IMG/VR virus record: IMGVR_UViG_3300032236_001530
Coordinates: 1-64,000 of that record
Reading direction: 5' to 3' (one strand)
Origin: a virus
Length of the DNA stretch: 64,000 bases
The translations under genes were made by a program, and so were the position numbers. The notes below the pieces were generated by a model. It saw nothing but the letters and a program-made list of their open reading frames with translations. It did not search any database and was not told where the DNA came from. This document shows positions 1 through 59,474 of this stretch, piece by piece (the stretch's first letter is position 1; every line of letters starts with the position of its first letter).

Positions 1-359
1 CATCCTTTGACCTTGTTAGTGATACATTAAAAAATGATATCAATGATATTCTTATAGCCATGAAAGATGATGATGATACTATAAGATTCGTTGTTCAAGG
101 GCTACCTCACCCTATCAATAGATTGTCTATTAATATTTATTTTACTGAAGATCCTTATGATACTAATGGTAAAGATAAGATATTAGATACTAATAAATAT
201 GAAGATGAGTTATTAAGATTAAATGATTATTTAGAAATGAATGGTTATACATTCTCTTCTTATAACTATCCAGGTGTAAGTTATGATGAAGTAACAAATG
301 ACTTCAATAAAATATTTGAGATAAAGCCAATCAATGGTTTAAATTTAATTTACAAATGA
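1..359 (+). CDS. Partial (5' truncated) member of the N-tagged paralog family
   Basis: Frame is open from window start (…DINDILIAMKDDD…RLNDYLEMNGY), matching the shared DIxDIxxExxDxG / RIxDY core. Confidence 0.75.
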   Translation, partial: SFDLVSDTLKNDINDILIAMKDDDDTIRFVVQGLPHPINRLSINIYFTEDPYDTNGKDKILDTNKYEDELLRLNDYLEMNGYTFSSYNYPGVSYDEVTNDFNKIFEIKPINGLNLIYK

Positions 360-787
360 GATATCTAAAGACATATAAAGTATTTGAATCTTCTTCTGAT
401 GAGGTTAAACAATATCTAACGGATATCTTCTTAGATATTCAAGATAAAGGAATTGAATTTGTAGGTATCAGTTCAACTACGACTAATGAAGAATTAGATA
501 CTTGCACAGTTATTATTGGTGATAGAAAGACTGCTAGGTTTAGAGCTAGAATGGAACGTAATACTAAAGTATTTCACTTATCAGATGTTTATGATAGTAT
601 TCAAATGGCTAAGAGTTATATGTCTGATGAAGGTTTCTCAGTTAATGATGTTAGAATCATTTCACCAGATAAATATGGTGAATTTGAAGTGTATGATCCT
701 TTATATAGTTTTAGTTTATATGAAAAAGGTAAAGGTGAATTGTTTAAAAAGCCAATTACTTATTTAGAATTAAAGTTCAGTAAATAA
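356..787 (+). CDS. N-tagged family protein (putative capsid-internal)
   Basis: Starts MRYLKTYKVFES; core YLTDIFLDIQDKG. Confidence 0.85.
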   Translation: MRYLKTYKVFESSSDEVKQYLTDIFLDIQDKGIEFVGISSTTTNEELDTCTVIIGDRKTARFRARMERNTKVFHLSDVYDSIQMAKSYMSDEGFSVNDVRIISPDKYGEFEVYDPLYSFSLYEKGKGELFKKPITYLELKFSK

Positions 788-797
788 TATATACACT

Positions 798-1433
798 ATG
801 AGATTTTTAAAAAGAATAAATGAAGGTTGGTCGGATGATTATGTAACAGACTTTTCTGATAATGGATTTACTATAGAAGAAACACCATCTAATATAAAAG
901 GTTCAATAAGTAAAGGTAAGTTTTTAGTAACTGATTTAAATAACTGGTTCACTGAAATGACAGATAAGTTATCAGATGATTATAAAGTCTTATCAGCTAA
1001 AACATTCTTTAATCAAACTACTGGTAATGCTAATTTTGAAATTGTGGTAGCTGAGACTGGCTTAGAAAGTGTTACTATTAATGTAGATGGTGCTGATATC
1101 GAATTTATACCTAAAACAATTATTTATATAAGTCATTATACTGATGTAAGCACTCTTCAATGGGGTGGTTTTTCTGTTAAGGGTAGATTATCAACCGGTC
1201 TAAATAAGACATTCTCAATATCCATTAAATGGAAAGATGATTTCAAAGAAATTAGTTTCTCATTATCGAATAAAGCAAGAGGTGTTACTATAACTAAAGA
1301 AAATATAGAAAAGGTATTCACGTTATTTGATTCAGGTCAAGTTAATTTTTCTAGTGAATTAACTTCTAATATTTATTCATCTAGAAAAGCTTTAGAGGAT
1401 ATTGGAATAATTAGATCAAAACTATCAGAATAA
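798..1433 (+). CDS. N-tagged hypothetical protein
   Basis: Starts MRFLKRINEG; TAATATATAC just upstream. Confidence 0.85.
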   Translation: MRFLKRINEGWSDDYVTDFSDNGFTIEETPSNIKGSISKGKFLVTDLNNWFTEMTDKLSDDYKVLSAKTFFNQTTGNANFEIVVAETGLESVTINVDGADIEFIPKTIIYISHYTDVSTLQWGGFSVKGRLSTGLNKTFSISIKWKDDFKEISFSLSNKARGVTITKENIEKVFTLFDSGQVNFSSELTSNIYSSRKALEDIGIIRSKLSE

Positions 1434-1901
1434 TTATTTAATCCTACAACTGGTTAACATAAAGTCTATCACAAATCTTGGTGTTTGACTTTGACTTTGA
1501 ATAACATCAGGTCCTAAATAATCTTTTAATCTTAAATAAACATCTTCTGATGTTCTGATAAGTTCGGTAGCATTATTTAATGATAGAATACTTGGCTCAC
1601 ACATAACTTCTAATCTTATCGGATGTCTTAATATATCATAACGAGTTTCTTTAACTGTAGCATATGACATAACGTCAGAGTCAAAAGAGTAATTAATTGG
1701 TTCCATTTCACAAGTTACTACTTCACCACTTTCTATCCAGTTATTAAATACTTTATTATCCACACGCCAGCTCATATTATCTAAGTTAACCCATTTGATT
1801 TCAAACTTTTTAGTATCCTCTAACTCTAAAAGAATATCTTCTATAGTTTCTTTATCAGGTAAGTCTTTAGGAAGTCTATTATGTAAATTAAGATTGCCCA
1901 T
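1434..1901 (-). CDS. Hypothetical protein with the family core but no typical N-tag
   Basis: TIEDILLELEDT…RLKDYL core. Confidence 0.75.
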   Translation of the reverse strand: MGNLNLHNRLPKDLPDKETIEDILLELEDTKKFEIKWVNLDNMSWRVDNKVFNNWIESGEVVTCEMEPINYSFDSDVMSYATVKETRYDILRHPIRLEVMCEPSILSLNNATELIRTSEDVYLRLKDYLGPDVIQSQSQTPRFVIDFMLTSCRIK

Positions 1902-2191
1902 TATAATATAGTTTGTAATTTCTTTTCTCTTAATACATCTAAAGGTATTTCTTCAATCACAATATTAATCGCTGAAGAATAATGACCAGTCACTGAGATA
2001 CAAGCAATACCTATAACCTTATGATTAACATAAGGAGCATAACGACCTTGACCTTTAACAACTTCCCACTCCATAGAAACCTCATCCCAATCATTTAAGA
2101 GTATTCTATAACTACCTGGGTTGTCTTTATAAAGGACTCTAACCATTGAGTTACGTTCAATATACTCGTCTATGAATTCTTTTAGTGTCAT
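1901..2191 (-). CDS. C-tagged hypothetical protein
   Basis: Ends LREKKLQTIL. Confidence 0.8.
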   Translation of the reverse strand: MTLKEFIDEYIERNSMVRVLYKDNPGSYRILLNDWDEVSMEWEVVKGQGRYAPYVNHKVIGIACISVTGHYSSAINIVIEEIPLDVLREKKLQTIL

Positions 2192-4627: not shown

Positions 4628-4872
4628 AGTATCTTGTCTAATTGTTTTTGACGGTATTCTTCTAATGTAATAAAATCATTCTCATTATTTAGGTCAATAA
4701 GATATGATCGACCATCATCACCTATAAAAGAAGTGATGCTTAAATCAACATCAGTAAATGGACATATAGAGACATCCTTGATGAATTCATATACCTTTCC
4801 CTCTGTTAATAATTGCTTATTAACATAATTACTATTAATACAAACCCATTTAGATTTAATTGTGGTATTCAT
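4624..4872 (-). CDS. C-tagged small beta-barrel-like protein (start revised to MNTT)
   Basis: WVCIN…LTEGKVY; ends YRQKQLDKIL; the upstream extension is the promoter. Confidence 0.8.
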   Translation of the reverse strand: MNTTIKSKWVCINSNYVNKQLLTEGKVYEFIKDVSICPFTDVDLSITSFIGDDGRSYLIDLNNENDFITLEEYRQKQLDKIL

Positions 4873-4909
4873 AATGCAAATATACAAAATATTATTTAAT
4901 ATATACTAT
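4873..4909. promoter_or_regulatory. Back-to-back promoters: host-type TAnnTTTG (minus) and AATATATA motif (plus)
   Basis: gcaaatata and taatatatac within 37 nt between divergent ATGs; the same layout recurs about 10 times. Confidence 0.7.
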
Positions 4910-5167
4910 ATGAGAATTAAAAGATTTAACGAAGAGTGGGAATACACTTATAAGGAAGAACCAGATACTTTAAGAGTAATGGGCAATGATGCTTATAAAT
5001 CACCTATAAGTAATTCAGTTATTAAATTATCAGTAACTAAGAATAAAAATGGTAGAACCAATGCTCTTGTTATTCAAACTAATGAAGGTGGTGCTGTTAT
5101 TAATGATCCAGCCGGTATTGATAAGTTAATTGATTGGTTAATGGAATACAAAGATACAATGTATTAA
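4910..5167 (+). CDS. N-tagged protein, paralog of 59217..59474
   Basis: Starts MRIKRFNEE; same length and highly similar to the 59217 ORF. Confidence 0.85.
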   Translation: MRIKRFNEEWEYTYKEEPDTLRVMGNDAYKSPISNSVIKLSVTKNKNGRTNALVIQTNEGGAVINDPAGIDKLIDWLMEYKDTMY

Positions 5168-5947: not shown

Positions 5948-5992
5948 ATGGCAAATATAAGGAATATATTTCAGTATTTTTATATATACCTT

Positions 5993-6400
5993 ATGAAATA
6001 TTTAAAAAAATTTAATGAAGAATACCTTGATAAAGAAGTATCTGATTACTTAGCAGATATTGGTATTGCTCTTCAAGATATCGGAGTTAAGATGGTGTTT
6101 CAAAATCAAGGTAGCAAAGTAATAATGTATCTAACTGGTGGTATCGGATTTACTTTTACATTAGCCGATATCAGAGAAGAAGTAAATCACATTATACATT
6201 TTATGGAAGCTTCCGGTCATAAGTTATTATCAGCTAGATATAAACCATATAGACAAAATATTATATGGACTATTATGTATGAGGTAGATAGATTAAATAG
6301 ATGGGGTATACCTCAACAAAAAGAAGATATCTTTGATATTCAAGATTTTGATTTAAGTAAAGAAAGAATAGAAAGCTTTGAGTTAAAGTTTTCTAACTAA
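5993..6400 (+). CDS. N-tagged family protein (start revised)
   Basis: MKYLKKFNEE; YLADIGIALQDIG; ends ELKFSN like the 356 ORF. Confidence 0.85.
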   Translation: MKYLKKFNEEYLDKEVSDYLADIGIALQDIGVKMVFQNQGSKVIMYLTGGIGFTFTLADIREEVNHIIHFMEASGHKLLSARYKPYRQNIIWTIMYEVDRLNRWGIPQQKEDIFDIQDFDLSKERIESFELKFSN

Positions 6401-7973: not shown

Positions 7974-8144
7974 GATGTTTTTTTGCATTTATATAGCTTA
8001 TGATAAAGTATGTTTATTAATTATGATATATAATTAATGTTTATTTATTTAGGGTTTGTATCTACTATAGTGCTTTTGTTTTTAATTGATGTTTTTATAT
8101 TTAAAAAGATTAAGAAATCAAAGTGAGTTATTAATATATATGTT

Positions 8145-8450
8145 ATGGAAAATATTAAAAGTTTTGAAAGTTTCACAAATGAAGGGTTGAAAAGTAAGAT
8201 AGCAACAGGTGCTGTGGCTTTATCTACATTAATGCCTATGTCTGGTAAATCACAAGATAAAGATGGTGATAAAACTGAAGATAAAAAAGAACAAGTTTAT
8301 ACAGCTACTAGAATTGGTAAGTTAAAAAATTATAATGTTGTTTATTTCAAAAGAGATACTAAGTCAAAATTTTCTTTTTATCCAATCTTTATAAAACTAA
8401 AAGACACTACTAGAACCTATAATGTAGGTGATACTATACAAGTACAATAA
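8145..8450 (+). CDS. N-tagged protein with signal-peptide-like segment after the tag
   Basis: MENIKSFESFTNE then GLKSKIATGAVALSTLMPMSGKS|Q. Confidence 0.8.
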   Translation: MENIKSFESFTNEGLKSKIATGAVALSTLMPMSGKSQDKDGDKTEDKKEQVYTATRIGKLKNYNVVYFKRDTKSKFSFYPIFIKLKDTTRTYNVGDTIQVQ

Positions 8451-8451
8451 T

Positions 8452-8805
8452 ATGAAACACTTAAAATCATACAACGAGTCATTTACTTCTGATATTATAC
8501 CAATGGCGGCATCTATGCTTTCTGTATTAGCCTTAGTTACGATACCATTTATACCAGTAGCTTTAGCTGATGCTAAAAAAGATAAAGAAGATAAATTAAA
8601 AAAGATGGCTATCAGAGATAGTGTCATGAGAACTATCTTAGAAAAGATAGGTAGAAACTATCAAGCTCAGGCTTTATTGAACTCTTATAAATTAGGTGAA
8701 ATAAGTATTGAAGAGTTTGCTAATAAGATGAAAAGTATATTAAAACTTATTTTAACACCGACTCAATATGGTTATTGTGAAGATGTTATAGATAGCTTAA
8801 AATAG
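8452..8805 (+). CDS. N-tagged membrane/secreted protein (start revised)
   Basis: MKHLKSYNES then hydrophobic MAASMLSVLALVTIPFIPVALA. Confidence 0.8.
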   Translation: MKHLKSYNESFTSDIIPMAASMLSVLALVTIPFIPVALADAKKDKEDKLKKMAIRDSVMRTILEKIGRNYQAQALLNSYKLGEISIEEFANKMKSILKLILTPTQYGYCEDVIDSLK

Positions 8806-12215: not shown

Positions 12216-12302
12216 TTTAAGATTTTTTAATTTAATTTATTATCATGATTTAGATACAAAGATAAAAAAGGTATTTGATATAACAAAATTAATATATAAA
12301 AT

Positions 12303-12602
12303 ATGAAACATCTAAAAAAATATAATGAAAACAAATCATCTTATAGATTAACTATAGTTGATTTTACTGGAGGTGGTGACGGTGTTACTGCTCTTTATGT
12401 TAATGGCGAATTAGAAAAATATGGTGATTACTACCACGATAAAATTGATGAGTGGATTGAAGGATTTGAAGCCGGTGTTAAAATGACTGGTGCTTTTGTA
12501 GAAGTTGAAAAAGAAGAGTGTAAAGACGCTGATATGATTGAAGCCATATCTGAGTTGGCAGATACACCACCACAATCAATACACGATGTTAGAGGAATAT
12601 GA
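12303..12602 (+). CDS. N-tagged hypothetical protein
   Basis: MKHLKKYNEN; TAATATATA upstream. Confidence 0.85.
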   Translation: MKHLKKYNENKSSYRLTIVDFTGGGDGVTALYVNGELEKYGDYYHDKIDEWIEGFEAGVKMTGAFVEVEKEECKDADMIEAISELADTPPQSIHDVRGI

Positions 12603-13015
12603 AATACTTAAAAACATATAAAATATTTGAATCTAGTAAAGATGCTTATCATGATTTAATGATGGTTCTAAATGATTTATTTGATGAATGGGGTATTATA
12701 TCATATTCTAATGAAAGATTTGGAGATGATGTTGAAGATTATCCTGAACATAAATTCTGGGCATTTAGAGATGGTAGTGGTGATATTATGACTAACAATA
12801 TAGACTCAATAAAAGATGTTAAAGATATAGTTATTTACAATATATCAACTAATGATAAAGATAAATTCATGAGTGACTTAATAAGTTATAAGGAACAAAT
12901 AGAAAAGGTAACTGGTAAAAAGCTTCAAATACAAGAAGAAGAAGTTAATAACTTATTTAATGATTATATACTCAGATTATGGGATTCATACAAGAAAACA
13001 ATAATTCAGTTATAA
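12599..13015 (+). CDS. N-tagged family protein
   Basis: MKYLKTYKIFES. Confidence 0.85.
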   Translation: MKYLKTYKIFESSKDAYHDLMMVLNDLFDEWGIISYSNERFGDDVEDYPEHKFWAFRDGSGDIMTNNIDSIKDVKDIVIYNISTNDKDKFMSDLISYKEQIEKVTGKKLQIQEEEVNNLFNDYILRLWDSYKKTIIQL

Positions 13016-13017: not shown

Positions 13018-13440
13018 ATGAGATACTTGAAAACATATAAAATATTTGAATCATCACATGATGAAATGATGAATGTTCGTTATGGTGCTGATGTAGTGCA
13101 AGAATGTGATTCCGTCATTGCTGATATCAAAGATATGTTATTAGAATTAACAGACGTTGGTCTTCACACTTCAGTTGGTTATACACCAATGACATTAGCA
13201 TATCAAGAAAAAACACCTAAAATATGTGTTGAGATATCAACTTATGTTGGTGTAATAACCGCAAGGACAAGGGTTCATACTGCTGGTAAATTTTTAAAAG
13301 GTGATACCGATTACACATCAGAAGTTAGAGAAACTATTGAAAGAATAAAAGAATATGTTAAGTCAAGAGGTTATCTTAAAGGTGATGGTGAGTGGGAAAG
13401 TAATCACAGACAGATATATCAAATGCTAATACAAAAATGA
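13018..13440 (+). CDS. N-tagged family protein (start revised)
   Basis: MRYLKTYKIFES; DIKDMLLELTDVG…ERIKEY. Confidence 0.85.
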   Translation: MRYLKTYKIFESSHDEMMNVRYGADVVQECDSVIADIKDMLLELTDVGLHTSVGYTPMTLAYQEKTPKICVEISTYVGVITARTRVHTAGKFLKGDTDYTSEVRETIERIKEYVKSRGYLKGDGEWESNHRQIYQMLIQK

Positions 13441-14246
13441 GATACTTAAAAACATATAAAATATTTGAATCAACAATATCTAAAACAGAGTTGGTTAACA
13501 AAATTAGATACTATTCTAATTGGTTACATAACTATATGAAAGATGTTAATAAGTACACTACTAGTAATCTTAACTTTGGTTTTTCTTTCAATACTGAATT
13601 AGAGATAAACCAAATATTTAGTGTTACTAATGAATTAAATGACGATTCATCGGATGGTTTGATTACCGCTATCGCAAATGAGTTTATTACATGGTCTAAA
13701 TATTTCACAGAAAATAGATGGGGTTATAGAAAAGAAGATATTATCCGTAGAGGAATGTTTCATGAGTTATTACCTGAAAGTAATATCTACTTTTTTACAG
13801 ACTATGATAACTATACAGATGAATATAAGACAAAGAATAAATATGTTTTGTACACGCAAGAATTAAATCATGATTTATATGTTTATGTTGGTTTAACTAT
13901 TCAAAGATTAATTTCAGGAACTATTTGGGATATTCCTGGAAAGAAACAATTTACAGATATTGATAAAGATTTTATTTTAGATAGTTTAAGATCTGATTAT
14001 GATTTAGATGAAAGTTATATTCTAAAAGCATCTGCTATGATAGATTCTTATAAATTGATACAGAGAAAAGTATCACAAAACAGAGGAATATCTATTAGAT
14101 TACCTTTAATTGGCGAAAGATGGAAACATATTGTAATAGACAACAATTCAGATTTTATGTATAGACTACAATCTTATTTTAATGGTGCTATTTTAATACC
14201 ATCATACTATGATTATTATAAAATATATTTACCATTTTATAAATAA
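13437..14246 (+). CDS. N-tagged hypothetical protein
   Basis: MRYLKTYKIFES. Confidence 0.85.
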   Translation: MRYLKTYKIFESTISKTELVNKIRYYSNWLHNYMKDVNKYTTSNLNFGFSFNTELEINQIFSVTNELNDDSSDGLITAIANEFITWSKYFTENRWGYRKEDIIRRGMFHELLPESNIYFFTDYDNYTDEYKTKNKYVLYTQELNHDLYVYVGLTIQRLISGTIWDIPGKKQFTDIDKDFILDSLRSDYDLDESYILKASAMIDSYKLIQRKVSQNRGISIRLPLIGERWKHIVIDNNSDFMYRLQSYFNGAILIPSYYDYYKIYLPFYK

Positions 14247-21138: not shown

Positions 21139-21192
21139 ATAATGACAAATATACAAATAAGTTTCCAGAATGTCAAAATAATATATACTCTA

Positions 21193-22407
21193 ATGAAATA
21201 CTTAAAATCATATAAGATGTTTGAATCACTTTCATATAATGCTGATTGGAAAAAACACGATAGTGCTATTAGAGCTGAGTTGGAAAGAGATTTAAATGAT
21301 ATTCTTTTAGAGATTACGGATTTAGGATTCCGCTCACATATATCTGGTTGGACCAAAGGTCCTGAAGGTATGTCACATTTCAGCCATCCTTATGTTTGGA
21401 TTAGATCAACATCTAAAACACCGGTTCCTATGATTGAACACACAGAAGACGTAATTGAAAGAATTAAAGATTACCTATCTGGAAAGGGATATCAAACAAA
21501 AGTTAGATTTTTTAATGAAGGCAAATCTTCTATGCAGATTTATATTTACTTTGATTTAGATCTTAAAGATATTAATGAATCTGTTAATCCAGAAGATTTA
21601 GATTACAATCTCATTGAAGATGTAAAAGATATATTACTTCCTTTTTCTGATATGGGTATGAAAGTTAGTTGCGATTATACTAGTAAAGGTGATAGTATTG
21701 CAATTAATGTAATGACATCAAAAGAAAAAGCATTTGATATTAATGAGTATAAAGATGATATAGATTCACTTCTTTCTTATATGAAAGAAAATAACTGGGG
21801 TATATTGAACTTCAATTTAGGTATTGTTGAAAAGAAAGAAGATTGGTCAGGTACTCACTTATTACCAAGGAGTCAACAAATTATATCTTACCCAAATGGT
21901 CCTCTTCAATATGATAAAGTTAAGAATCCTACATTTTGGATAACTGCTGAATTTGTAAAGATTGTTTATACAAAAGTAAAAAGTGTTAAAGAGTCAGTAG
22001 AATCAGATACGGTTAAAAAAGATATTGAAGAAATATGTTATGAATTAACAGATTATGGTAAATTTAGAGTTGATATTAGACAAAATGTAAAATATTCTAG
22101 ATCCGCTTTCACCACTGGCAAAGAAGAGAAAGAATGGGTGGTGATTATATCACTTGATGATCATATGGATTATGATGGATTCTTACTAAGTGAAGTAGAA
22201 GATACTCTTATGAGAATAAAGTCATATCTTGGTTTAGGAAGATTTATGAGATGTGATGTACTTTTAGTTGGTGAACAAGATAGGAAACCACTTAATTATA
22301 TATCGGATGAAGATAGGAAAAATAATATAAACTTTCCATCTCCAAGAGGAATAGATAAATTAACCGATGAAAGAATAACAAATATAATTATTCACTACAC
22401 ATTATGA
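21193..22407 (+). CDS. N-tagged family protein with three tandem family units (start revised)
   Basis: MKYLKSYKMFES; three DIxxExxDxG cores separated by DINESV and VKESVES. Confidence 0.85.
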   Translation: MKYLKSYKMFESLSYNADWKKHDSAIRAELERDLNDILLEITDLGFRSHISGWTKGPEGMSHFSHPYVWIRSTSKTPVPMIEHTEDVIERIKDYLSGKGYQTKVRFFNEGKSSMQIYIYFDLDLKDINESVNPEDLDYNLIEDVKDILLPFSDMGMKVSCDYTSKGDSIAINVMTSKEKAFDINEYKDDIDSLLSYMKENNWGILNFNLGIVEKKEDWSGTHLLPRSQQIISYPNGPLQYDKVKNPTFWITAEFVKIVYTKVKSVKESVESDTVKKDIEEICYELTDYGKFRVDIRQNVKYSRSAFTTGKEEKEWVVIISLDDHMDYDGFLLSEVEDTLMRIKSYLGLGRFMRCDVLLVGEQDRKPLNYISDEDRKNNINFPSPRGIDKLTDERITNIIIHYTL

Positions 22408-22865
22408 GATACTTAAAATCATATAAATTATTTGAAGCCAGATTTGTAGAATTTAGAGAAATTGTTTCTACGATTAAAGATATCTGTCAAGAGTTTGAAG
22501 ATAATAATTGTAGATGTGAAATAGAACCAAAAGATGATATTCAATTAAATATTATATCACTTAAAAGTAGAGGACATCTTAGTAGTTTAACAATACCTTT
22601 TTATCTTGAAATAAATATTGATAGAATAATAATTAAACAAGATGATAATAGAAGTGGGTTTGGTGAATTTCCAGAATGGTTTATAGAGACATGTAGAAGA
22701 ATAGAAGATTTTATGTTATCTGAAGGTTTCAAAACTTTACCATCAGTTAGATATACCGTTGATTGGGAAAACTTTGATACAATTGATGAGTTAGAAGAAC
22801 AAACTGGATTAATATCAAAAGTAAAATTAGAATTTATACCTAATGAAGTACCTAAAGAAATATAA
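22404..22865 (+). CDS. N-tagged family protein
   Basis: MRYLKSYKLFEA; IKDICQEFED. Confidence 0.85.
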   Translation: MRYLKSYKLFEARFVEFREIVSTIKDICQEFEDNNCRCEIEPKDDIQLNIISLKSRGHLSSLTIPFYLEINIDRIIIKQDDNRSGFGEFPEWFIETCRRIEDFMLSEGFKTLPSVRYTVDWENFDTIDELEEQTGLISKVKLEFIPNEVPKEI

Positions 22866-23235
22866 GCTATTTGAATCCTATAAAGAAATACTAGATAACA
22901 TCGAAGATATCTTTCGTGAGATAGAAGATGTTGGATTTAGAATTGAATATAACAAAGGTGGAGTTGATGAAATAACTAAAATCTATATTGAGAAATTTGA
23001 TGCTAATAATGATTCAATACCTTATATACCAAATCAAGATTTTGTACTGGCTTTACAACATTTAATTTCATACCTCAGTAAAGATTATGATATTGAAATA
23101 GAAACTATACACCAATCACAATGTGTTGATTTTTTAAGCACAAAAGATGGCTTAACCGAAAAAGACGCTACAATCATAGGTGATTATAAAGCACCTATTG
23201 ATTATATTAGAATTGTAATAAGTAATAAAGATTAG
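22843..23235 (+). CDS. N-tagged family protein
   Basis: MKYLKKYKLFES; IEDIFREIEDVG. Confidence 0.85.
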   Translation: MKYLKKYKLFESYKEILDNIEDIFREIEDVGFRIEYNKGGVDEITKIYIEKFDANNDSIPYIPNQDFVLALQHLISYLSKDYDIEIETIHQSQCVDFLSTKDGLTEKDATIIGDYKAPIDYIRIVISNKD

Positions 23236-24667: not shown

Positions 24668-24700
24668 AGGATTATATATTTATTTTAATATATACTTTTA

Positions 24701-34939: not shown

Positions 34940-34990
34940 GTTACAAAGATACAAAAATTATTTACAATAAACAAATTAATATATACAATT

Positions 34991-36127
34991 ATGATTAAGA
35001 AATTTAATGATTTTAGTGAATCTTTATTAGAAAGTTTGCTTAATGAGTCTATTCTTTATTTTTCACCAGACTTTAGAAATAAATTAAAGATGATGAAGAA
35101 TAAAACAACAAGTTTAGTTATAAATAACATAACTAATGACTTGTTGAATTTAGAAGGTGAAAACCTTGACTCTGATGTAACATTTATTGATTTATCAAAA
35201 GATGAAGGATTTCTACACTTTATGCCTATGGCTAAAGCAATTGATAAAATACACACAAAGTTTCCAACAACTAAAGGTGTTGATGGCTTAGACGTTCAAG
35301 TAGATACCTACACCAATGACCTGTTGTATGATAGAGAAATGGATGGTTGGAACATTGGCATTTATAAAGGAACTAACTCAATTAAAGTTGGTAAGTTTAT
35401 CCAAAAAGTAATGCCTGGTAAATATAATGATAAACAAATTGAGGAATTTGTAAATAATCTAAAATCTATTCAAAGTAATAATCAAGAAAAAATAAGTCTT
35501 GTAAAAGGAGAAGATATTAAATATTGGTATAATAAGGATAATTACTTATCACAATCAGGAAGTTTAGGTAATTCTTGTATGGCTGATAAAGACTTTTTTG
35601 ATATCTACGTTAAAAACCCAGATGTTTGTAGATTGTTAATAATGACTATTGGTGATAAACTAATAGGTAGAGCACTTGTTTGGAAGATAAATTCTTGTGA
35701 ATATGCCACGCTCCCGATTGATGGTGATGATTTAAATTTTGAATATTATATCGATAGAGTTTATACTAGCAAAGATTATCAAATAAACATAATAAAAGAT
35801 TATGCAAGAAATCAAAGGTGGGCTCTTCGTTCGTCTAACGGATATTCAAGTGGACAAGGTATTGAATATAAAGGCAAAGAAATAGAGGTTAAAATGTCTG
35901 TTAAGATTAATAGTAAGATAAAATATAAATCTTATCCCTATATGGATACTTTTGTAAGATATGATTATGTAACTGGTTTACTTTGGAATGATGATAGAAA
36001 AGATAGGAATACAAGAGGTCATATTCTTAGATCAACTCAAGGTGATTACTTAGAAGGTTATCCAAGAGGATATATTAGAAGATTTGGTGATTACTTTGGA
36101 TTAAATCTTCCACCATTCGGAGAATAA
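34991..36127 (+). CDS. N-tagged hypothetical protein (start revised)
   Basis: MIKKFNDFSESLLESLLNES; SLGNSCM, GRALVW, YIDRVY, YPYMDT motifs. Confidence 0.85.
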   Translation: MIKKFNDFSESLLESLLNESILYFSPDFRNKLKMMKNKTTSLVINNITNDLLNLEGENLDSDVTFIDLSKDEGFLHFMPMAKAIDKIHTKFPTTKGVDGLDVQVDTYTNDLLYDREMDGWNIGIYKGTNSIKVGKFIQKVMPGKYNDKQIEEFVNNLKSIQSNNQEKISLVKGEDIKYWYNKDNYLSQSGSLGNSCMADKDFFDIYVKNPDVCRLLIMTIGDKLIGRALVWKINSCEYATLPIDGDDLNFEYYIDRVYTSKDYQINIIKDYARNQRWALRSSNGYSSGQGIEYKGKEIEVKMSVKINSKIKYKSYPYMDTFVRYDYVTGLLWNDDRKDRNTRGHILRSTQGDYLEGYPRGYIRRFGDYFGLNLPPFGE

Positions 36128-42153: not shown

Positions 42154-45100
42154 ATGGCTATTAAATACATTATAGATAACTCAGATAACTCATTAGGTAC
42201 TCAAAGTATAAATGGTACCGTTTCCGTTGGCAACTTAACAATAACCGATATACAATCAACCACCGGTCTAACAAACTATGTAGTTGTTGATAGTGATGGT
42301 AATACTTTCTATCAAACAGGTGGTGGAGGTGGAACAAGTAGTCCTATTTTAGGAACATCACACTCTGTTCCTATGTATAACACTAATGGTATTGGATTAA
42401 CAGATAGCGTTGCTTACATTTTCCCAGCTAAATATAATAACACTGCATCAAATGGCTACTCAAATCCTATACCGGATACTTTAATAGTTGGTGGTACTAA
42501 AATTGGCGCTTCAACAAATTATCCACAAACGGTTGGTGTTATTGATAATGGTACAACAGCAAATGGTTTAGCTAGATATCCACAACTTATGGTAATCGCG
42601 GGTACAGCTTACCCTGGTGGTTACACAGCTGGTGTTGCTGCTATTAGTGCTATGGTTATTGATGGTGTTAAAAATAGAAGAGCAACTTTATTTTATAACT
42701 ACAATGATGGAGTTTGGGGCTTATCAGATACAGGGTCTACTGGGGGTGACACATTTGCTTTGTTTCAATCAACAAAAAGAGTGATGTCTGTTTTTAGTAC
42801 AGGTCATGTTAACTTTCAAAATGGTGGTACACATTCAGATTCTGGTAATTTCTTTACCATTGTTGGTACTTCATCTTTCACTGGTGGCAAATTAGAAATA
42901 GGAACAGATTCTGGAATACAACTTTTGGGTTTAACTTCAGGTACTCCTACTTCAACTGGTCAGGCAATTGGTGTTGATGCGTCAGGTAATATTATTACGG
43001 TAGTTGGTGGGGGTGGTAGCACGGGCTCATCTGGATCTAGTGGTTCCTCTGGATCTAGTGGTACATCAGGGTTTAACGGTTCAAGTGGATCTTCCGGATC
43101 TTCTGGTACTTCAGGTAATAGTGGATCTTCGGGTACTTCAGGTAATAGCGGATCTTCTGGTTCCTCAGGCTCATCTGGTTTAAGTGGTTCTTCAGGATCA
43201 TCCGGTGTAAATGGTACATTTATGGGATCTAGTGGTACATCTGGTGTTAGTGGATCATCAGGTTCAAGTGGTATATCAGGTTCTTCTGGATCAAATGGGT
43301 CTTCAGGTACATCTGGTATATCGGGGTCTTCTGGATCAAGCGGATCTTCAGGTTCCTCTGGATCGAGCGGTTCATCTGGTATATCGGGTTCTTCTGGATC
43401 AAATGGGTCTTCAGGTACATCTGGTTTATCCGGTTCTTCTGGGTTAAGTGGATCTTCAGGTTCCTCTGGATCAAGCGGTTCAAGTGGTATTAATGGATCT
43501 AGTGGTTCATCTGGCTTATCAGGATCTAGTGGCTCATCTGGATATAGTGGATCTTCAGGTTCCTCTGGAACAAGTGGTTCTTCTGGGTTATCAGGATCAA
43601 GTGGATCTTCGGGTATTGATGGATCAAGTGGATCATCTGGCTTATCAGGATCTAGTGGCTCTTCAGGTTTATCTGGATCAAGTGGTTCATCTGGCTTATC
43701 TGGATCAAGTGGATCTTCGGGTATTGATGGATCAAGTGGCTCTTCAGGTTTATCTGGATCAAGTGGCTCTTCAGGTTTATCTGGATCAAGTGGATCTTCG
43801 GGTTTATCTGGATCAAGTGGATCTTCGGGTTTATCTGGATCAAGTGGCTCTTCAGGTTTATCTGGATCAAGTGGATCTTCGGGTATTGATGGATCAAGTG
43901 GCTCTTCAGGTTTATCTGGATCAAGTGGATCTTCGGGTTTATCTGGATCAAGTGGATCATCTGGCTTATCAGGATCAAGTGGATCATCTGGTTCATCGGG
44001 ATCAAGTGGTTCAAGTGGTAACTCAGGTTCTTCAGGATCAAGTGGTTCATCTGGCTTATCAGGATCGAGCGGTTCATCTGGATTATCTGGATCGAGCGGT
44101 TCATCAGGTTTATCTGGCTCAAGTGGATCTTCGGGTATTGATGGATCAAGTGGATCTTCAGGTCTATCAGGATCAAGTGGCTCATCCGGATTATCAGGAT
44201 CAAGTGGTTCATCAGGTTTATCAGGATCGAGTGGTTCTTCCGGGTTATCTGGATCAAGTGGTTCCTCTGGGTTTGGTGGATCAAGTGGCTCATCCGGATT
44301 ATCAGGATCAAGTGGCTCATCTGGATTATCAGGATCAAGTGGCTCATCAGGTCTATCAGGATCAAGTGGATCTTCGGGTTTATCAGGATCAAGTGGCTCA
44401 TCTGGGGTTGATGGATCGAGCGGTTCATCGGGTTTATCAGGATCAAGTGGCTCATCAGGTTTATCAGGATCAAGTGGATCATCTGGCTTATCAGGATCAA
44501 GTGGATCATCTGGCTTATCAGGATCAAGCGGCTCATCTGGCTTATCAGGATCAAGTGGATCTTCGGGTTTATCAGGATCAAGTGGCTCTTCAGGAAACTC
44601 TGGTTCCAGTGGATCAAGTGGCACATCTGGATTATCTGGTTCTAGTGGATCATCCGGTACATCGGGTAGTAGTGGCTCAAGTGGTACATCCGGTTCACAT
44701 GGTTCATCTGGATCAAGTGGAACTTCTGGATCAAGTGGCTCATCTGGATCAAGTGGAACATCAGGTGTTAACGGTTATTCAGGAGTTGATGGTACATCTG
44801 GATCTTCAGGATCTTCTGGTAACTCCGGTTCAAGTGGTTCATCAGGTAACTCCGGTTCAAGTGGTTCATCAGGTAATTCTGGATCAAGTGGCTCATCGGG
44901 TAACTCTGGTAGCAGTGGTTCATCAGGATCTTCTGGTAGTTCAGGATTGAGTGGATCTTCTGGTAGTAGTGGAACATCGGGTAAAGATGGTCCATTAAAT
45001 GGTCCTTATTCTAATCCAAATGGTCCGGTTACTGGTGGTTATCTTGGTCAATTATATTTTGGTTCAGATGGTAGTGTTTGGAATTGGAATGGTAGTAGCT

Positions 45101-45654
45101 GGTTATATAGTGGTAACATATCTGGTTCTTCTGGATCAAGTGGTTCATCTGGTGTTAATGGATATGGTTCATCAGGATCTTCGGGTGTCAGTGGATCAAG
45201 TGGGTCATCAGGTGTTTCTGGATCATCAGGATCTTCAGGTGTTAGTGGATCATCAGGTGTTTCTGGATCAAGCGGCTCTTCTGGTGTTAATGGATCAGGA
45301 TCAAGTGGGTCATCTGGTATTAGCGGTTCATCTGGATCAAGTGGTTCATCCGGTGTTAATGGTTCTGGATCAAGTGGATCAAGTGGGTCATCAGGAACTG
45401 ATGGATCAAGTGGTTCATCCGGTGTATCTGGATCAAGTGGTTCATCCGGTGTTAGTGGTGGTGTGACTAATGCAGGTGCTTTAGCCACTGCTTGGGGTCT
45501 ACCAGGTGATTTAAAAAATGGTAATTGCCAACCTCTTGATGGTGATGGTAACCCAATAGGACCCGCGGGTATATGGGTATTTAGATATGATGGTGATCCA
45601 GATGCAACCTATGGTCCTTGTTTTAAACTTAAAATATGTTGTGAATTACCTTAA
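42154..45654 (+). CDS. Gly-X-Y (GSS) repeat protein, putative virion fibre/glycoprotein
   Basis: 1166 aa; beta-rich N-terminal ~285 aa then long (GSS/GLS/GTS/GID) repeats; TAATATATA upstream. Confidence 0.9.
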   Translation: MAIKYIIDNSDNSLGTQSINGTVSVGNLTITDIQSTTGLTNYVVVDSDGNTFYQTGGGGGTSSPILGTSHSVPMYNTNGIGLTDSVAYIFPAKYNNTASNGYSNPIPDTLIVGGTKIGASTNYPQTVGVIDNGTTANGLARYPQLMVIAGTAYPGGYTAGVAAISAMVIDGVKNRRATLFYNYNDGVWGLSDTGSTGGDTFALFQSTKRVMSVFSTGHVNFQNGGTHSDSGNFFTIVGTSSFTGGKLEIGTDSGIQLLGLTSGTPTSTGQAIGVDASGNIITVVGGGGSTGSSGSSGSSGSSGTSGFNGSSGSSGSSGTSGNSGSSGTSGNSGSSGSSGSSGLSGSSGSSGVNGTFMGSSGTSGVSGSSGSSGISGSSGSNGSSGTSGISGSSGSSGSSGSSGSSGSSGISGSSGSNGSSGTSGLSGSSGLSGSSGSSGSSGSSGINGSSGSSGLSGSSGSSGYSGSSGSSGTSGSSGLSGSSGSSGIDGSSGSSGLSGSSGSSGLSGSSGSSGLSGSSGSSGIDGSSGSSGLSGSSGSSGLSGSSGSSGLSGSSGSSGLSGSSGSSGLSGSSGSSGIDGSSGSSGLSGSSGSSGLSGSSGSSGLSGSSGSSGSSGSSGSSGNSGSSGSSGSSGLSGSSGSSGLSGSSGSSGLSGSSGSSGIDGSSGSSGLSGSSGSSGLSGSSGSSGLSGSSGSSGLSGSSGSSGFGGSSGSSGLSGSSGSSGLSGSSGSSGLSGSSGSSGLSGSSGSSGVDGSSGSSGLSGSSGSSGLSGSSGSSGLSGSSGSSGLSGSSGSSGLSGSSGSSGLSGSSGSSGNSGSSGSSGTSGLSGSSGSSGTSGSSGSSGTSGSHGSSGSSGTSGSSGSSGSSGTSGVNGYSGVDGTSGSSGSSGNSGSSGSSGNSGSSGSSGNSGSSGSSGNSGSSGSSGSSGSSGLSGSSGSSGTSGKDGPLNGPYSNPNGPVTGGYLGQLYFGSDGSVWNWNGSSWLYSGNISGSSGSSGSSGVNGYGSSGSSGVSGSSGSSGVSGSSGSSGVSGSSGVSGSSGSSGVNGSGSSGSSGISGSSGSSGSSGVNGSGSSGSSGSSGTDGSSGSSGVSGSSGSSGVSGGVTNAGALATAWGLPGDLKNGNCQPLDGDGNPIGPAGIWVFRYDGDPDATYGPCFKLKICCELP
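43015..45456 (+). repeat. Coding tandem repeat (9/27-nt period) encoding Gly-Ser-Ser triplets, in two blocks
   Basis: ggatcaagt/ggatcttct-type units, interrupted around 44985-45120 by a YFGSDGSVWNWNGSSW segment. Confidence 0.95.
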
Positions 45655-55224: not shown

Positions 55225-55566
55225 TTATTTTAATTCTTCTGTAATTTCTTTAGCAATTTCTTTAGGGTCTTTATCAGGATTTGCAGCAATTGTATCAGCG
55301 ATTCTTTTATTAACCGCATCTTTTTTCTCTTTACTGAACTTTAAGTAGGATGGTAAAAAAGCACCACCTACTAAACCTAAAGCACCAAGTACACCCGATA
55401 CCGTTTCCCAGTTATAAACTAAGTCGTGAGTACCATCATAATGTGATTGTTGTAACCATTGTACAAAGTTATTATATATGTCAGATACAGCAGCAAAGTC
55501 GAATTCTTCGTTAACTTTAACTTCTTGTTTTTCTGAATAAGATTCAAATCTTTTAAGATGTTTCAT
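55225..55566 (-). CDS. N-tagged membrane protein (start revised)
   Basis: MKHLKRFESYSE…VNEE; TM helix VSGVLGALGLVGGAFL. Confidence 0.8.
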   Translation of the reverse strand: MKHLKRFESYSEKQEVKVNEEFDFAAVSDIYNNFVQWLQQSHYDGTHDLVYNWETVSGVLGALGLVGGAFLPSYLKFSKEKKDAVNKRIADTIAANPDKDPKEIAKEITEELK

Positions 55567-57536: not shown

Positions 57537-57596
57537 TTTAGTTGTATTAATTAAATTAAATTTGTTTTTTCGAGTTGTTAATTAAATATATAGAGT

Positions 57597-58511
57597 ATGA
57601 AGCATATAAAAGAATTTAGTCTTTTTGAATCAGTTCATGAGAATTCTTGGGATTATAATGAATTAATGGGTAGACTTTTACACCTATATGGTTCTATTCC
57701 AGTTCCTAAAGAAAAATCATCTGTTGTTATAAGTAAAATTATTCAATCATCAATGGGTGAGTTATTTACTCTTGGTGAAAATGTTGATATTAACTTTTGT
57801 AAAGTACATGATAAAATTAGATTTAGTGACTATTTTGATTCTTTACTTGAAGATAAAGATGTAAGAGGTCATAACTTTGAAGGTCTTGTATGTGGTCTTT
57901 TTGGTGGTAGACTATCAACAAGAGGTGCTAAATACGACTTAACAATTGATAGTCAAAGATATAGTGTGAAATTCGTAGACCATAAAAATAAAGCACCTGA
58001 AATTGGCAGATTCAAAAGTATTATAACAACTAAGAAAAATGTAAACCAAGCCGTTATAGATGGTGGTGGTTTAACAAATGTTTTCAGAGGCACTGATACT
58101 AGATTAAAAAGAAAAATATGGAACGCTATTACTCCTGAAATTGATGGCTGGATTTTAGCTTACCCGGATAATATTGATAACCCCACAAACATTGTATTAA
58201 ATGTTGTTGATAAACCAGAAATGTTTAGAATTATAAATGAAGGTTTTGTTGTGGCACCAAAAGGCGGTTATAATGATATTTACTCACTTGCTTTAAGTTC
58301 AAGATATATTAATGAAGGTGATTATATAAAAAGTGTTATTAAAATTCCTCAAGTTTCTTTTGCTGAATTAAAAGAAGAATATAAAACAATTCAAGATGAA
58401 AACTGGGCAGTGAGTGTATTTGGTAATATGGGTTATAAAATGAGACCCGATGTTCTTAGATATATTAGAATGAATAAAGAAACAATTATTAAAAGGCTTA
58501 GTGAAATTTAA
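57597..58511 (+). CDS. N-tagged protein, possible restriction-endonuclease-like fold
   Basis: MKHIKEFSLFES; RGHNFEGLV…KYDL…YSVK resembles a PD-(D/E)XK variant. Confidence 0.7.
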   Translation: MKHIKEFSLFESVHENSWDYNELMGRLLHLYGSIPVPKEKSSVVISKIIQSSMGELFTLGENVDINFCKVHDKIRFSDYFDSLLEDKDVRGHNFEGLVCGLFGGRLSTRGAKYDLTIDSQRYSVKFVDHKNKAPEIGRFKSIITTKKNVNQAVIDGGGLTNVFRGTDTRLKRKIWNAITPEIDGWILAYPDNIDNPTNIVLNVVDKPEMFRIINEGFVVAPKGGYNDIYSLALSSRYINEGDYIKSVIKIPQVSFAELKEEYKTIQDENWAVSVFGNMGYKMRPDVLRYIRMNKETIIKRLSEI

Positions 58512-58519
58512 TTAGTAAT

Positions 58520-58552
58520 AAAAAAGCCTCAGATTTCTCTGAGGCTTTTTTT
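58520..58552. terminator. Bidirectional intrinsic terminator
   Basis: aaaaagcctcag-atttct-ctgaggcttttt; same core as 31692. Confidence 0.85.
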
Positions 58553-59156
58553 ATTTAAAATAACCAAGTTCTTTTAATGATAAATAAGCAAAATAAACAC
58601 CAAATATACCCATAATAAGACTCATTGTATATACCGCATATACCACAATTAAGGCTGAGAATGATACCGATAACCAAGAAGCAATTCTTCTATTTTTATA
58701 TCGATTTTTAGAAAGATTTGCTATACTTCTAACAATCTGACCACCATCCATTGGATATATTGGTAAAATATTAAATATAAATAAAAACAAATTAATATTA
58801 TACATATCATTAACAAATTCATGTATTGGTCCAACCGGACAATAAGGCTCTATAAAATAACACAATAAAGAAAGAATTAGTGTACTTATAGGACCAGCCG
58901 CTGTAATTGGAATTGAATCCCTGTCGTGCATATTTGAATCTATTGCAGCAGCACCAGAAATCATATCAATTGTGATTCCATAAACTTTATAACCTTTTTG
59001 ATTAGCCATCCAAGCATGACCCAATTCATGTATTAGAACTGAAACAAAGACCGCGCCGACTGCAATTGGTGGTAGCATTAAAAATAATAGGAAGAACCAA
59101 ATACTAACTGATACTGGTGCTCCTCGGAAATTAAATAATTTAAACGATTGTTTCAT
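58551..59156 (-). CDS. Site-2 protease (peptidase M50)
   Basis: HELGH, AAGP, FNILPIYPMDGG. Confidence 0.92.
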   Translation of the reverse strand: MKQSFKLFNFRGAPVSVSIWFFLLFLMLPPIAVGAVFVSVLIHELGHAWMANQKGYKVYGITIDMISGAAAIDSNMHDRDSIPITAAGPISTLILSLLCYFIEPYCPVGPIHEFVNDMYNINLFLFIFNILPIYPMDGGQIVRSIANLSKNRYKNRRIASWLSVSFSALIVVYAVYTMSLIMGIFGVYFAYLSLKELGYFK

Positions 59157-59216
59157 GTGTATATTTTTTACAAATGTAAGGAATATTATTAAATAATAAA
59201 ATTAAATATATACTTT

Positions 59217-59474
59217 ATGAGAATTAAAAGATTTAACGAGGATTGGGAATATACAATTACTGAAAAAGATGATGAGTTAAGTATTTTGGGTAGTGATGCT
59301 TACAAATCACCACATTCAAACTCGGTTGTTAAACTATCAACTACTAAGAATAAAAACGGTAGAACCGAAGCAATCATTATTCAAACTAATCAACACGGAA
59401 CAATTATTAATGACCCAGCTGGAATTGATAAGATAATAGATTGGTTAATGGAATACAAAGATAGAATGTATTAA
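59217..59474 (+). CDS. N-tagged protein, paralog of 4910..5167
   Basis: MRIKRFNED…INDPAGIDK.IDWLMEYKD. Confidence 0.85.
   Translation: MRIKRFNEDWEYTITEKDDELSILGSDAYKSPHSNSVVKLSTTKNKNGRTEAIIIQTNQHGTIINDPAGIDKIIDWLMEYKDRMY

Follow-up and report, generated by a model that had tools for sequence, protein, structure and literature searches.

The internal proteins of bacteriophage T4 are small, highly basic and DNA-associated, and their capsid-targeting sequence (CTS) was reportedly described by Mullaney and Black in 1996. CTSs are the propeptides of 10–20 aa found on T4 gp24 and the internal proteins (PMC5694885). The CTS, of sequence MKTYQEFIAE (PMC8442874), is removed from IPI, IPII and IPIII by the prohead protease gp21, as is the 10-aa propeptide of gp24 (PMC3012670, PMC8442874, PMC5694885), and every T4-type prohead protease cleaves after Glu (PMC5694885). 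Similarly, in phiKZ, 201phi2-1 and SPN3US, the propeptides of ejection or inner-body paralogues are cut by gp175/gp245 (PMC5694885, PMC7411985).

In this study, we analyzed a window of 64,000 nt, meaning the whole stretch of DNA, from a 155-kb contig of an uncultivated huge Bacteroidota phage (a Mahaphage-type genome fragment). The original prediction listed 24 ORFs in this window whose products share a short N-terminal peptide, hereafter the tag; genome-wide counts refer to the 155-kb contig. The closest complete relative, LR756502.1 (642 kb), is syntenic with the contig at 40–82% amino-acid identity, and PTm1, an unrelated Bacteroidota jumbo phage with G+C equal to that of the contig, served as a control. 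No cultured relative bearing the tag was found.

The tag is similar to the T4 CTS in several respects. Both are N-terminal peptides of approximately 10 residues on otherwise unrelated proteins, with Lys close to the N-terminus, aromatic or aliphatic residues recurring at i, i+3 and i+6/7, and a hydrophobic-x-Glu end, and both go with late expression (predicted here from upstream boxes) and with diverse cargo in variable arrays. Additionally, LR756502.1 has a T4-type module of portal, protease and gp23-like capsid. The likeness between T4 MKTYQEFIAE and MIKKYQNFLNE of the tag is one of pattern, compared by eye, in peptides too short for statistics. In contrast, the two show no significant sequence homology, and the tag frequently has Phe or Tyr at P3, with Phe or Asn at P2. 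Moreover, T4 has a handful of carriers, whereas about 41–46 tagged ORFs occur in the 155 kb of the contig and 90–137 in the 642-kb relative, and the T4 proteins are basic, whereas most of the tagged cargo is acidic, with enzymes and a membrane protein among it.

phiKZ and SPN3US are likewise giant phages; they have paralogous head-internal families and T4-related proteases cleaving after Glu, and gp53 and gp54 of SPN3US have an identical 15-residue N-terminus bearing the cleavage motif. However, they belong to another phage lineage with other hosts, their propeptides often exceed 100 residues, and no one tag is common to dozens of unrelated proteins. They use the motif (S/A/G)-x-E, whereas S/A/G occupies P3 in about 3% of our tags; this type of motif was ruled out, as P3 is I/F/Y/L in 82%.

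Distribution and conservation of the N-terminal tag

The tag comprises 9–12 residues, ends in Glu, and is shared by approximately one in five proteins of the contig. Its consensus is M-[KR]-[YH]-L-K-x-[YF]-(K-x)-[FN]-E-S, with the variants MIKK[FYW]xxFxxE and MRIKRFNE. Translation of all listed starts showed the peptide at the N-terminus of 24/24 ORFs, as originally claimed. The strict form M[KR][YFH][LI]K... is present in 17 of them, and variant forms occur at 4910, 59217, 8145, 34991 and 29313(-); the weakest tag is that of 27490. The tagged ORFs and one untagged reference gene are as follows (spacers in nt).

356–787 (+): tagged ORF, 143 aa, MRYLKTYKVFES; paralogous core (acidic helix after tag); no box; preceded by ORF 60–359
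798–1433 (+): tagged ORF, 211 aa, MRFLKRINEG; box AATATATA 786–793, spacer 4
4910–5167 (+): tagged ORF, 85 aa, MRIKRFNEEW (variant MRIKRFNE); 73% identity to paralogue 59217; box 4898–4905, spacer 4
5993–6400 (+): tagged ORF, 135 aa, MKYLKKFNEE; paralogous core; box 5981–5988, spacer 4
8145–8450 (+): tagged ORF, 101 aa, MENIKSFESF; weak hydrophobic stretch behind tag; box 8133–8140, spacer 4
8452–8805 (+): tagged ORF, 117 aa, MKHLKSYNES; one clear transmembrane helix behind tag
12303–12602 (+): tagged ORF, 99 aa, MKHLKKYNEN; heads run of four tagged genes; box 12291–12298, spacer 4
12599–13015 (+): tagged ORF, 138 aa, MKYLKTYKIFES, from translation
13018–13440 (+): tagged ORF, 140 aa, MRYLKTYKIFES; weak BLASTP link to 21193
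13437–14246 (+): tagged ORF, 269 aa, MRYLKTYKIFES; LR756502.1 orthologue (47% identity) starts MKYLKGYKIFES
21193–22407 (+): tagged ORF, 404 aa, MKYLKSYKMFES; box 21180–21187, spacer 5
22404–22865 (+): tagged ORF, 153 aa, MRYLKSYKLFEA, from translation
22843–23235 (+): tagged ORF, 130 aa, MKYLKKYKLFES, from translation
24158–24667 (-): tagged ORF, 169 aa, MKYLKLFESF; divergent from 24701; box 24673–24680, spacer 5
24701–25096 (+): tagged ORF, 131 aa, MRYLKLFESF; ORFan family, viruses only; box 24687–24694, spacer 6
27490–27846 (+): GNAT acetyltransferase, 118 aa, weak tag MKKLTEMINEQ; LR756502.1 homologue starts MKHIKTYKE; box 27461–27468, spacer 21
28570–29313 (-): tagged ORF, 247 aa, MKYLITYKLFEF; box 29318–29325, spacer 4
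29317–30405 (-): tagged fusion, 362 aa, MRYLKTYNES, Nudix (residues 14–139) and ART-like domain
30383–31012 (-): tagged ORF, 209 aa, MKYLKKYKLFES, core N-domain and pterin-4a-carbinolamine dehydratase (PCD, residues 130–205)
31012–31389 (-): tagged ORF, 125 aa, MKYLKKFNES; heads run 31389 to 28570; box 31394–31401, spacer 4
34991–36127 (+): tagged ORF, 378 aa, class B tag MIKKFNDFSES; 30–31% identity to two paralogues elsewhere in the genome; box 34978–34985, spacer 5
55225–55566 (-): tagged ORF, 113 aa, MKHLKRFESY; box farther upstream, about 35 nt
57597–58511 (+): tagged ORF, 304 aa, MKHIKEFSLFES; box 57585–57592, spacer 4
59217–59474 (+): tagged ORF, 85 aa, MRIKRFNEDW (variant MRIKRFNE); box 59205–59212, spacer 4
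42154–45654 (+): untagged gene for a collagen-like tail fibre; TAATATATA box, spacer 4 to the ATG; late-class reference

In the motif scan of genome and relative proposed with the original prediction, the core pattern matched 22 times in the 155-kb genome translated in six frames, always right after a start Met and never internally, and in LR756502.1, 43 matches are N-terminal and 3 internal. A loose pattern recovered 41 of 221 ORFs on the contig versus 1 of 301 in PTm1, and recurrence by chance is excluded. Codons within the tag vary synonymously (Leu TTA/CTA/CTT/TTG, Ser TCN/AGT), so the tag is conserved at the protein level; K/R swaps also occur. P1 is Glu, P1' is Ser in 49% of tags, and the tag is kept across phages whose orthologues are only 35–70% identical. 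In both AF2 models, it is disordered (pLDDT <50, residues 1–13 and 1–17). Collectively, these results indicate that the tag is real, N-terminal, modular and selected as protein.

Proteins carrying the tag

In BLASTP comparisons among the tagged ORFs, the cargo was mostly unrelated; it ranges over Nudix, GNAT, PCD, PPK2, an ART-like domain, NFACT-R, lysozyme, an Acb1-like 2H phosphoesterase and many ORFans. Pfam confirmed GNAT (27490), Nudix (30405(-)) and PCD (31012(-)), and the acidic helix of the paralogous core is common to approximately 10 of the 24 ORFs. These four entries of the originally proposed cargo list therefore stand, as does membrane cargo for 8452, while 8145 has a weak stretch only and the "nuclease-like" entry was unconfirmed. 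Hydrophobic or transmembrane segments occur in one or two tagged proteins. The cargo is acidic, with a median pI of 5.1–5.3 and a pI <6 in 61–67%.

The Nudix domain of 30405(-) has an RppH/Ap4A-hydrolase-like fold, and the conserved C-terminal ART-like domain spans approximately 200 aa (29320–29928). With the AF2 model of this domain (pLDDT 81), ART enzymes made up most of the 36 best VIA-align matches, among them Arr, DarT, PARPs, diphtheria toxin and OspC3 (Z at most 5.2), and Foldseek returned nothing at E <0.1. Stand-alone homologues of the domain bear their own tags, and in other fusions, the tag is found at the new N-terminus. Collectively, the sequences support the view that the tag is a modular label on unrelated, apparently late proteins.

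In related genomes, an NFACT-R gene of about 129 aa lies directly after the capsid gene. Its tag may be of class A, class B or another kind, and the E↓[SG]KK junction (arrow, putative cleavage position) is kept in 36 of 42 distinct sequences. Moreover, the tag-like peptide and junction persist internally in three fused forms of the protein. The Glu junction is fixed while the remainder of the tag is interchangeable.

Upstream box of tagged genes

The AATATATA box precedes 14 of the 24 ORFs, with a spacer of 4–6 nt in 13, and the box-less ORFs are located inside gene runs, which agrees with the original placement of the box upstream of the first genes of runs. A TAATATATA box 4–6 nt before the ATG is common to tagged, tail-fibre and baseplate genes, and a promoter-like box is also present at the portal gene. 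Since tail-fibre and baseplate genes bear it too, we take the box for a general mark of late genes that does not belong to the tag system. On the contig, a TATATA box at most 22 nt upstream occurs at 21/41 tagged versus 25/180 untagged genes (p 1e-6); in LR756502.1, the corresponding counts are 57/137 versus 98/826 (p 3e-15). Tagged genes are depleted of the host-type TAnnTTTG box (1/41 versus 27/180). Judged by these boxes, tagged genes share the promoter class of the structural genes and would belong to the late class.

Head module and capsid propeptide

A search of the 155-kb contig gave no match for head genes of its own. LR756502.1 encodes a portal (phrog_213, 4e-59), a protease-scaffold fusion (phrog_207, 6e-28), whose S77 match of 20–23 bits is under the Pfam cut-off of 27, and a gp23-like capsid protein, and these genes are also present at 80 related loci. 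Tagged genes lie within the head operon of 40-odd related genomes. The tag is absent from tail, baseplate, portal and protease proteins.

In hhalign, one tagged family (74504–75505(-)) aligns to residues 34–93 of the capsid protein from LR756502.1 (probability 82%, E 1e-5). The final Glu of its tag aligns on the Glu of capsid INE↓N, a position that does not vary among 80 related capsid proteins, and the tag occupies the position of the last capsid propeptide helix. This family is thus homologous to the junction of capsid propeptide and mature protein, a likeness to the gp23 delta-domain. In contrast, the tag itself has no score against the capsid helix: a PSSM comparison gave no resemblance, and the match is limited to position and the downstream stretch. 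When aligned with T4 gp23, the T4 cleavage site lies approximately 24 residues downstream of INE↓N, with no Glu there. PTm1 has the same head module without tags; there, a 39-residue stretch beginning exactly at a Glu is common to the capsid protein and the product of the gene located between those for portal and protease (56% identity, E 2e-11).

Discussion

We lean, with some reservation, towards reading the tag as a T4 CTS-type capsid-targeting propeptide that would be cut after Glu. The tagged proteins would be made late, alongside head and tail proteins, and their amphipathic, aromatic N-terminal peptide may dock them on the scaffold or core of the assembling prohead. The hydrophobic-x-Glu end is of the type cut by T4-type prohead proteases, and cleavage is predicted after the terminal Glu, with the consensus [I/F/Y/L]-[F/N]-E↓[S/N/E/G/D/A]. 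The mature cargo would then stay in the head and enter the next cell with the DNA. Some cargo resembles known packaged effectors, namely the ART-like domain, for which T4 Alt is the comparison, Nudix, lysozyme and the Acb1-like 2H phosphoesterase. The original packaging proposal is partly supported, by the modular label, the hydrophobic-x-Glu end, the T4-type head module of the relative, the tagged family homologous to the capsid junction and the tagged genes in head operons; unlike in T4, the cargo is acidic. Capsid targeting is also opposed by at least one membrane protein (8452) and by the tagless PTm1 with the same head module. The contig devoid of head genes, the low S77 score of the relative's protease, the negative PSSM comparison and the gp23 alignment weigh against it as well. 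Furthermore, 15–20% of all genes would be head cargo, which to our knowledge is far beyond any known phage.

Rather unlikely, in our view, is that the tag serves as a docking or recognition label for a phage-encoded partner other than the prohead, such as a chaperone, a modifying enzyme, a cytoplasmic protease timing activity or the sorting machine of another compartment; the Glu would then end the recognized helix or mark a processing site unconnected with head assembly. The tag is modular, disordered and position-defined, like any address label, and acidic cargo as well as atypical head cargo (the membrane protein, PCD, PPK2, GNAT and NFACT-R) would suit such a partner. However, no candidate reader enzyme was seen co-occurring with the tag, and both the capsid-junction homology and the head-operon location indicate the head. 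Tail, baseplate, portal and protease proteins without the tag also speak against this partner, and because of them, the tag is not a general late-protein label.

Two further explanations dispense with an address. The shared start could be an inherited opening helix, derived from a single very large and rapidly diverging family of paralogues and carried into other genes on a recombining cassette of promoter plus first codons. The acidic helix in about 10/24 ORFs and weak BLASTP links, the tandem arrays, fused LR756502.1 paralogues with internal tags and the frequent co-travel of box and tag fit this; we nevertheless consider it improbable, given tags on Pfam domains of independent origin and on box-less internal genes, the swapping of tag classes on one orthologue around a fixed Glu junction, and retention of the tag among such divergent orthologues. 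A role of the first 10–12 codons as an expression element, acting as mRNA or nascent peptide to aid translation of late mRNAs that are nearly leaderless, in a host lacking Shine-Dalgarno pairing, seems very improbable. With the box 4–6 nt before the ATG, transcription may begin at the start codon or right beside it, and codon 3 is enriched in codons with a final C (TAC in 12/18 Tyr versus 21% in gene bodies, p 3e-5), a trend likewise found in LR756502.1. However, untagged tail-fibre and baseplate genes have the same box and spacing, box-less genes inside runs are tagged, synonymous variation is free at most tag positions, and the internal tag-like peptide and junction of fused proteins stand where an effect on initiation is impossible.

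Within the capsid-targeting reading, a bolder and more doubtful version is that, in a lineage of huge Bacteroidota phages, the last helix of the capsid protein's propeptide, together with its cleavage site, became a portable label that loads approximately 15% of the proteome, >100 proteins, into the capsid. The loaded set might, equally tentatively, include the ART-like, Nudix, PPK2, NFACT-R, lysozyme and Acb1-like enzymes. The tag is placed on dozens to >100 different proteins, compared with the handful of T4 carriers. If the portable label were real, then, because it would load >100 proteins into the capsid, the phage would inject a set of ready-made effector proteins and not just DNA.

A Glu-terminated peptide tag at gene starts

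Each of the 24 start codons listed in the original prediction opens an ORF that begins with a short peptide of 9–12 residues ending in Glu, hereafter the tag. The commonest form is M-[KR]-[YH]-L-K-x-[YF], followed by K-x-F-E-S, N-E-S or E-S-F. MRIKRFNE (ORFs starting at 4910 and 59217), MIKKFNDFSES (34991) and MENIKSFESF (8145) are variants, and MKKLTEMINEQ (27490) is the weakest tag. MKYLK/MKHLK-type tags are referred to as class A and MIKK-type tags as class B. When the motif scan was extended to the whole contig, about 41–46 carriers were found, and the syntenic relative LR756502.1 has 90 (strict pattern) to 137 (loose pattern, which takes in some false positives) among 963 simple ORF calls, with about 45 of them concentrated in a single 40-kb stretch.

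All pattern matches among the 1,113 ATGs that have 45 or more sense codons behind them fall on gene starts, and the core pattern has 22 matches in a six-frame translation, 22 of 22 directly behind the start Met. In the Tenacibaculum jumbo phage PTm1 (29.7% G+C, same head-module type), 1 of 301 ORFs matches. The motif is not due to base composition. Moreover, synonymous codons vary freely within the tag (Leu as TTA, CTA, CTT or TTG; Ser as TCN or AGT), which argues for selection on the peptide. The exception is codon 3, which is enriched in C-ending codons in tagged ORFs of both the window and LR756502.1; Tyr at this position is encoded by TAC in 12 of 18 cases vs 21% in gene bodies (p = 3e-5), and TAT predominates at codon 7.

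The tag is kept in orthologue pairs of the contig and LR756502.1 (MRYLKTYKIFES / MKYLKGYKIFES; MIKKWNEFIRE / MIKKWGDFIRE), with one-residue shifts that make ungapped tag identity across pairs uninformative. A separate tag "dialect" for each genome was ruled out, as the 30-kb contig L011 and the orthologues of an NFACT-R gene mix several classes. Equating the tag with the "basic and aromatic N-terminal extensions" of phage bS21 (Al-Shayeb et al.) was also rejected, the LR756502.1 bS21 being untagged. In the literature searched, the tag strings are absent and the system is undescribed. The tag is disordered in both AF2 models. Two fused paralogues of LR756502.1, 22663-23577 (-) and 34154-35059 (+), have a second, internal tag, which is preceded by Met in one and has Gly instead of Met in the other.

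The contig as part of a huge phage

The window covers the first 64 kb of the contig, a single viral sequence of 155,228 bp with 30.8% G+C and both ends open. Its right half (92–155 kb) is syntenic with positions 87–160 kb of LR756502.1 at 40–82% amino-acid identity, and a 471,672-bp metagenomic contig encodes a protein identical to that of its ORF 74504-75505. These two observations indicate that the contig is a piece of a huge phage, and the identical protein makes the CheckV completeness of 83% for this record seem overestimated. For LR756502.1 itself, a curated "Mahaphage" genome of 642 kb, the predicted hosts are Bacteroidetes (PMC7162821). Blastn of a 6.7-kb stretch against the phage collection gave no match, and an IMG/VR scan with a baseplate protein returned no relatives. 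Neither an S77 protease nor a capsid protein was matched anywhere in the 155-kb contig; the head-assembly genes of this phage are predicted to lie beyond the fragment, and the head module described below was read from the relatives' genomes rather than from the window's phage.

Unrelated cargo behind the tag

The claim that the tag sits on unrelated cargo held: once the first 14 residues are removed, most carriers have no BLASTP relationship. Three of the predicted cargo types were also recovered by Pfam, namely GNAT (27490), Nudix from residue 14 (30405, minus strand) and pterin-4a-carbinolamine dehydratase (31012, minus strand), and PPK2 cargo was found elsewhere in the contig. The paralogous core was likewise found, with about ten carriers sharing an acidic helix behind the tag and forming a virus-only ORFan family. 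In the loose set of LR756502.1, Pfam finds lysozyme, Nudix, methyltransferase, ankyrin, HNH, PrkA kinase and 2H/Acb1-like phosphoesterase. Overall, the cargo is acidic (median pI 5.1–5.3) and includes at least one membrane protein. Two further candidates were set aside. The tRNA-synthetase hit in the LR756502.1 set most probably reflects spurious matching by the loose pattern, as the carrier judged likely by its length begins MNFIEDKIIE; assignment of contig ORF 93769-95622 to PrkA was rejected, with only a weak DHH match found.

The Nudix protein also contains a conserved C-terminal domain that was modeled by AF2:

Window 29320-29928 (-): ART-like C-terminal 200 aa of the 362-aa Nudix protein

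Over 100 metagenomic phage proteins contain this domain at 55–80% identity; an IMG/VR scan with it returned only two loci. When it stands alone it bears its own tag (e.g., MKHLKRFNES, MKFILEFNEY or MKIILEFQEF), and in fusions to other N-terminal domains the tag is found at the new N-terminus. Structural matches of the AF2 model are mainly ADP-ribosyltransferases at low Z (≤5.2). The domain has no Pfam match, its profile has no PDB sequence match, and Foldseek gave no significant match. L007 (LR756508.1, 243–284 kb) comes from a phage of 484 kb that encodes a clear S77 protease; its five ART-like-domain paralogues each begin with a different shared peptide of the form MKLKKxLxE.

Promoter-like boxes ahead of tagged genes

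Two alternating promoter-like boxes, TAnnTTTG and TAATATATA, partition the genome (examples in the window at 4862-4905, 27425-27470 and 34940-34985). TAnnTTTG, the known Bacteroidota sigma-A -7 element, stands ahead of runs of small untagged minus-strand genes and is rarer at tagged genes (1/41 vs 27/180 untagged). TAATATATA lies 4–6 nt (near-leaderless) or about 20 nt ahead of tagged-gene ATGs, with the same placement at the genes for the collagen-like tail fibre (42154), baseplate hub and tail lysozyme.

TATATA box at tagged and untagged genes
This contig: tagged 21/41; untagged 25/180; p 1e-6
LR756502.1: tagged 57/137; untagged 98/826; p 3e-15

The original prediction placed AATATATA upstream of runs of tagged genes. 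Its position was confirmed for 14 of the 24 window carriers, the others lying inside runs. The box is a general late-type signal separate from the tag; as untagged structural genes have it at identical spacing, expression from it does not require the tag. The tail fibre gene, 42154-45654 (+), has 41–43% G+C vs 28–30% for the genome and is overlapped by numerous spurious ORFs on both strands.

Tag junctions and the head module

The head module of LR756502.1 is T4-type, with a portal (phrog_213, 4e-59), a 699-aa protease-scaffold fusion at 225272-227371 (phrog_207, 6e-28; the Pfam S77 match is under the cut-off) and a gp23-like capsid protein whose N-terminus is similar to the T4 delta-domain. 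The tag is absent from portal, protease, capsid, tail and baseplate proteins. Three features link the tag, or the junction behind a Glu, to head assembly:

L001:10504-11505, genome 74504-75505 (-): 333-aa tagged protein, orthologue of an 81-aa protein of LR756502.1
L046:12178-13011: PTm1 ORF299, between the portal and protease genes
L099:11806-12195 and 40 other loci: tagged NFACT-R (DUF814) gene, directly after the major capsid gene

Residues 32–86 of the LR756502.1 capsid protein match the 81-aa protein, which carries the tag and is encoded in the same genome (44% identity, within-proteome E 1e-6). In its 333-aa orthologue, the tag MKHLKRYKAFLE is followed by a Gly/Ala/Thr-rich stretch with AGMG and GSGD motifs; residues 3–55 show homology to the junction between capsid propeptide and N-arm, and an acidic region comes next. 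This family has at least 162 metagenomic proteins and is tagged in 120 of the best 120. Its profile aligns with capsid residues 34–93 (hhalign probability 82%, E 1e-5), and the last Glu of the tag sits on the Glu of capsid INE|N, in a segment that is invariant across 80 related metagenomic capsid genes. In PTm1, which by its capsid protein is the nearest cultured phage, the capsid protein and ORF299 match over 39 residues (56% identity, E 2e-11), and the shared stretch starts exactly at Glu in both (INE|SYG and LLE|SYG). A 165-aa protein of LR756502.1, 315773-316270 (L028), duplicates the whole capsid delta-domain and N-arm, with 32% identity over 104 aa, but lacks the shell domains; it may be a decoy or assembly factor.

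The NFACT-R protein is about 129 aa in related loci (PF05670, 8e-16), and a location next to the capsid gene is unusual for an RNA-binding domain of the ribosome-quality-control type. Its first 8–13 residues alternate between class A (MKHLKQFE), class B (MIKKYNYFFE) and others (MKLKKYSQFNE, MRNLRTFKYFLKE), and the junction E|[SG]KKDKFP is retained in 36 of 42 distinct sequences. In three fused versions, both a tag-like peptide and the junction N-E|[SG]K are still found internally. In related loci, the third gene downstream of the capsid gene is likewise tagged, and the gene of about 455 aa that separates it from the NFACT-R gene is tagged in some genomes.

Interpretation of the tag

In T4, the capsid targeting sequences (CTS) are propeptides of 10–20 residues on gp24 and the internal proteins (PMC5694885), such as MKTYQEFIAE (PMC8442874), and T-even internal proteins are diverse, the CTS alone being conserved (PMC3012670). 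Cleavage after Glu is common to T4 gp21 and the proteases of phiKZ, 201phi2-1 and SPN3US (PMC5694885). Class A tags have I/F/Y/L at P3 (82%), F or N at P2, E at P1 and S at P1' (49%). The best-supported mechanism, toward which we lean by a modest degree, is that the tag is a CTS-like capsid-targeting propeptide, cut behind its terminal Glu by a T4-type prohead protease. Beyond the existence, modularity and apparent lateness of the tag and its fixed Glu junction, we infer the rest of this mechanism. The tag system would best be classed as a candidate member of the CTS principle of T4, in a new and greatly enlarged form.

However, several observations count against a CTS-like propeptide: the acidity of the cargo, the membrane-protein carrier, the same head module without tags in PTm1, and the weak S77 match of the relative's protease. 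Furthermore, the tag PSSM does not single out the propeptide helix of the capsid protein, whose sites rank 304th or lower, and alignment with T4 puts the capsid cleavage position about 24 residues downstream of INE|N, where there is no Glu. To our knowledge, the number of carriers is without precedent. A reader of the tag other than the prohead deserves some weight but seems unlikely. Inheritance of the tag within a giant paralogous family, combined with cassette recombination, appears improbable. It is very improbable that the tag is an expression element of near-leaderless late mRNAs; the internal tags weaken this explanation, as do the untagged genes that share the box.

Should the tag prove to be a capsid-loading signal, these huge phages would bring a large ready-made enzyme set into the cell at infection, which would change the view of early host take-over and counter-defence and would account for late-type promoters on many "host-manipulating" genes. 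The virion cargo of uncultivated phages would then be predictable by sequence alone, and the tag would be a short, cleavable natural handle to package foreign proteins in phage heads. Even with a reader other than the prohead, a 10-residue label on hundreds of unrelated proteins, encoded on metagenomic contigs that also number in the hundreds, would constitute an undescribed sorting system.
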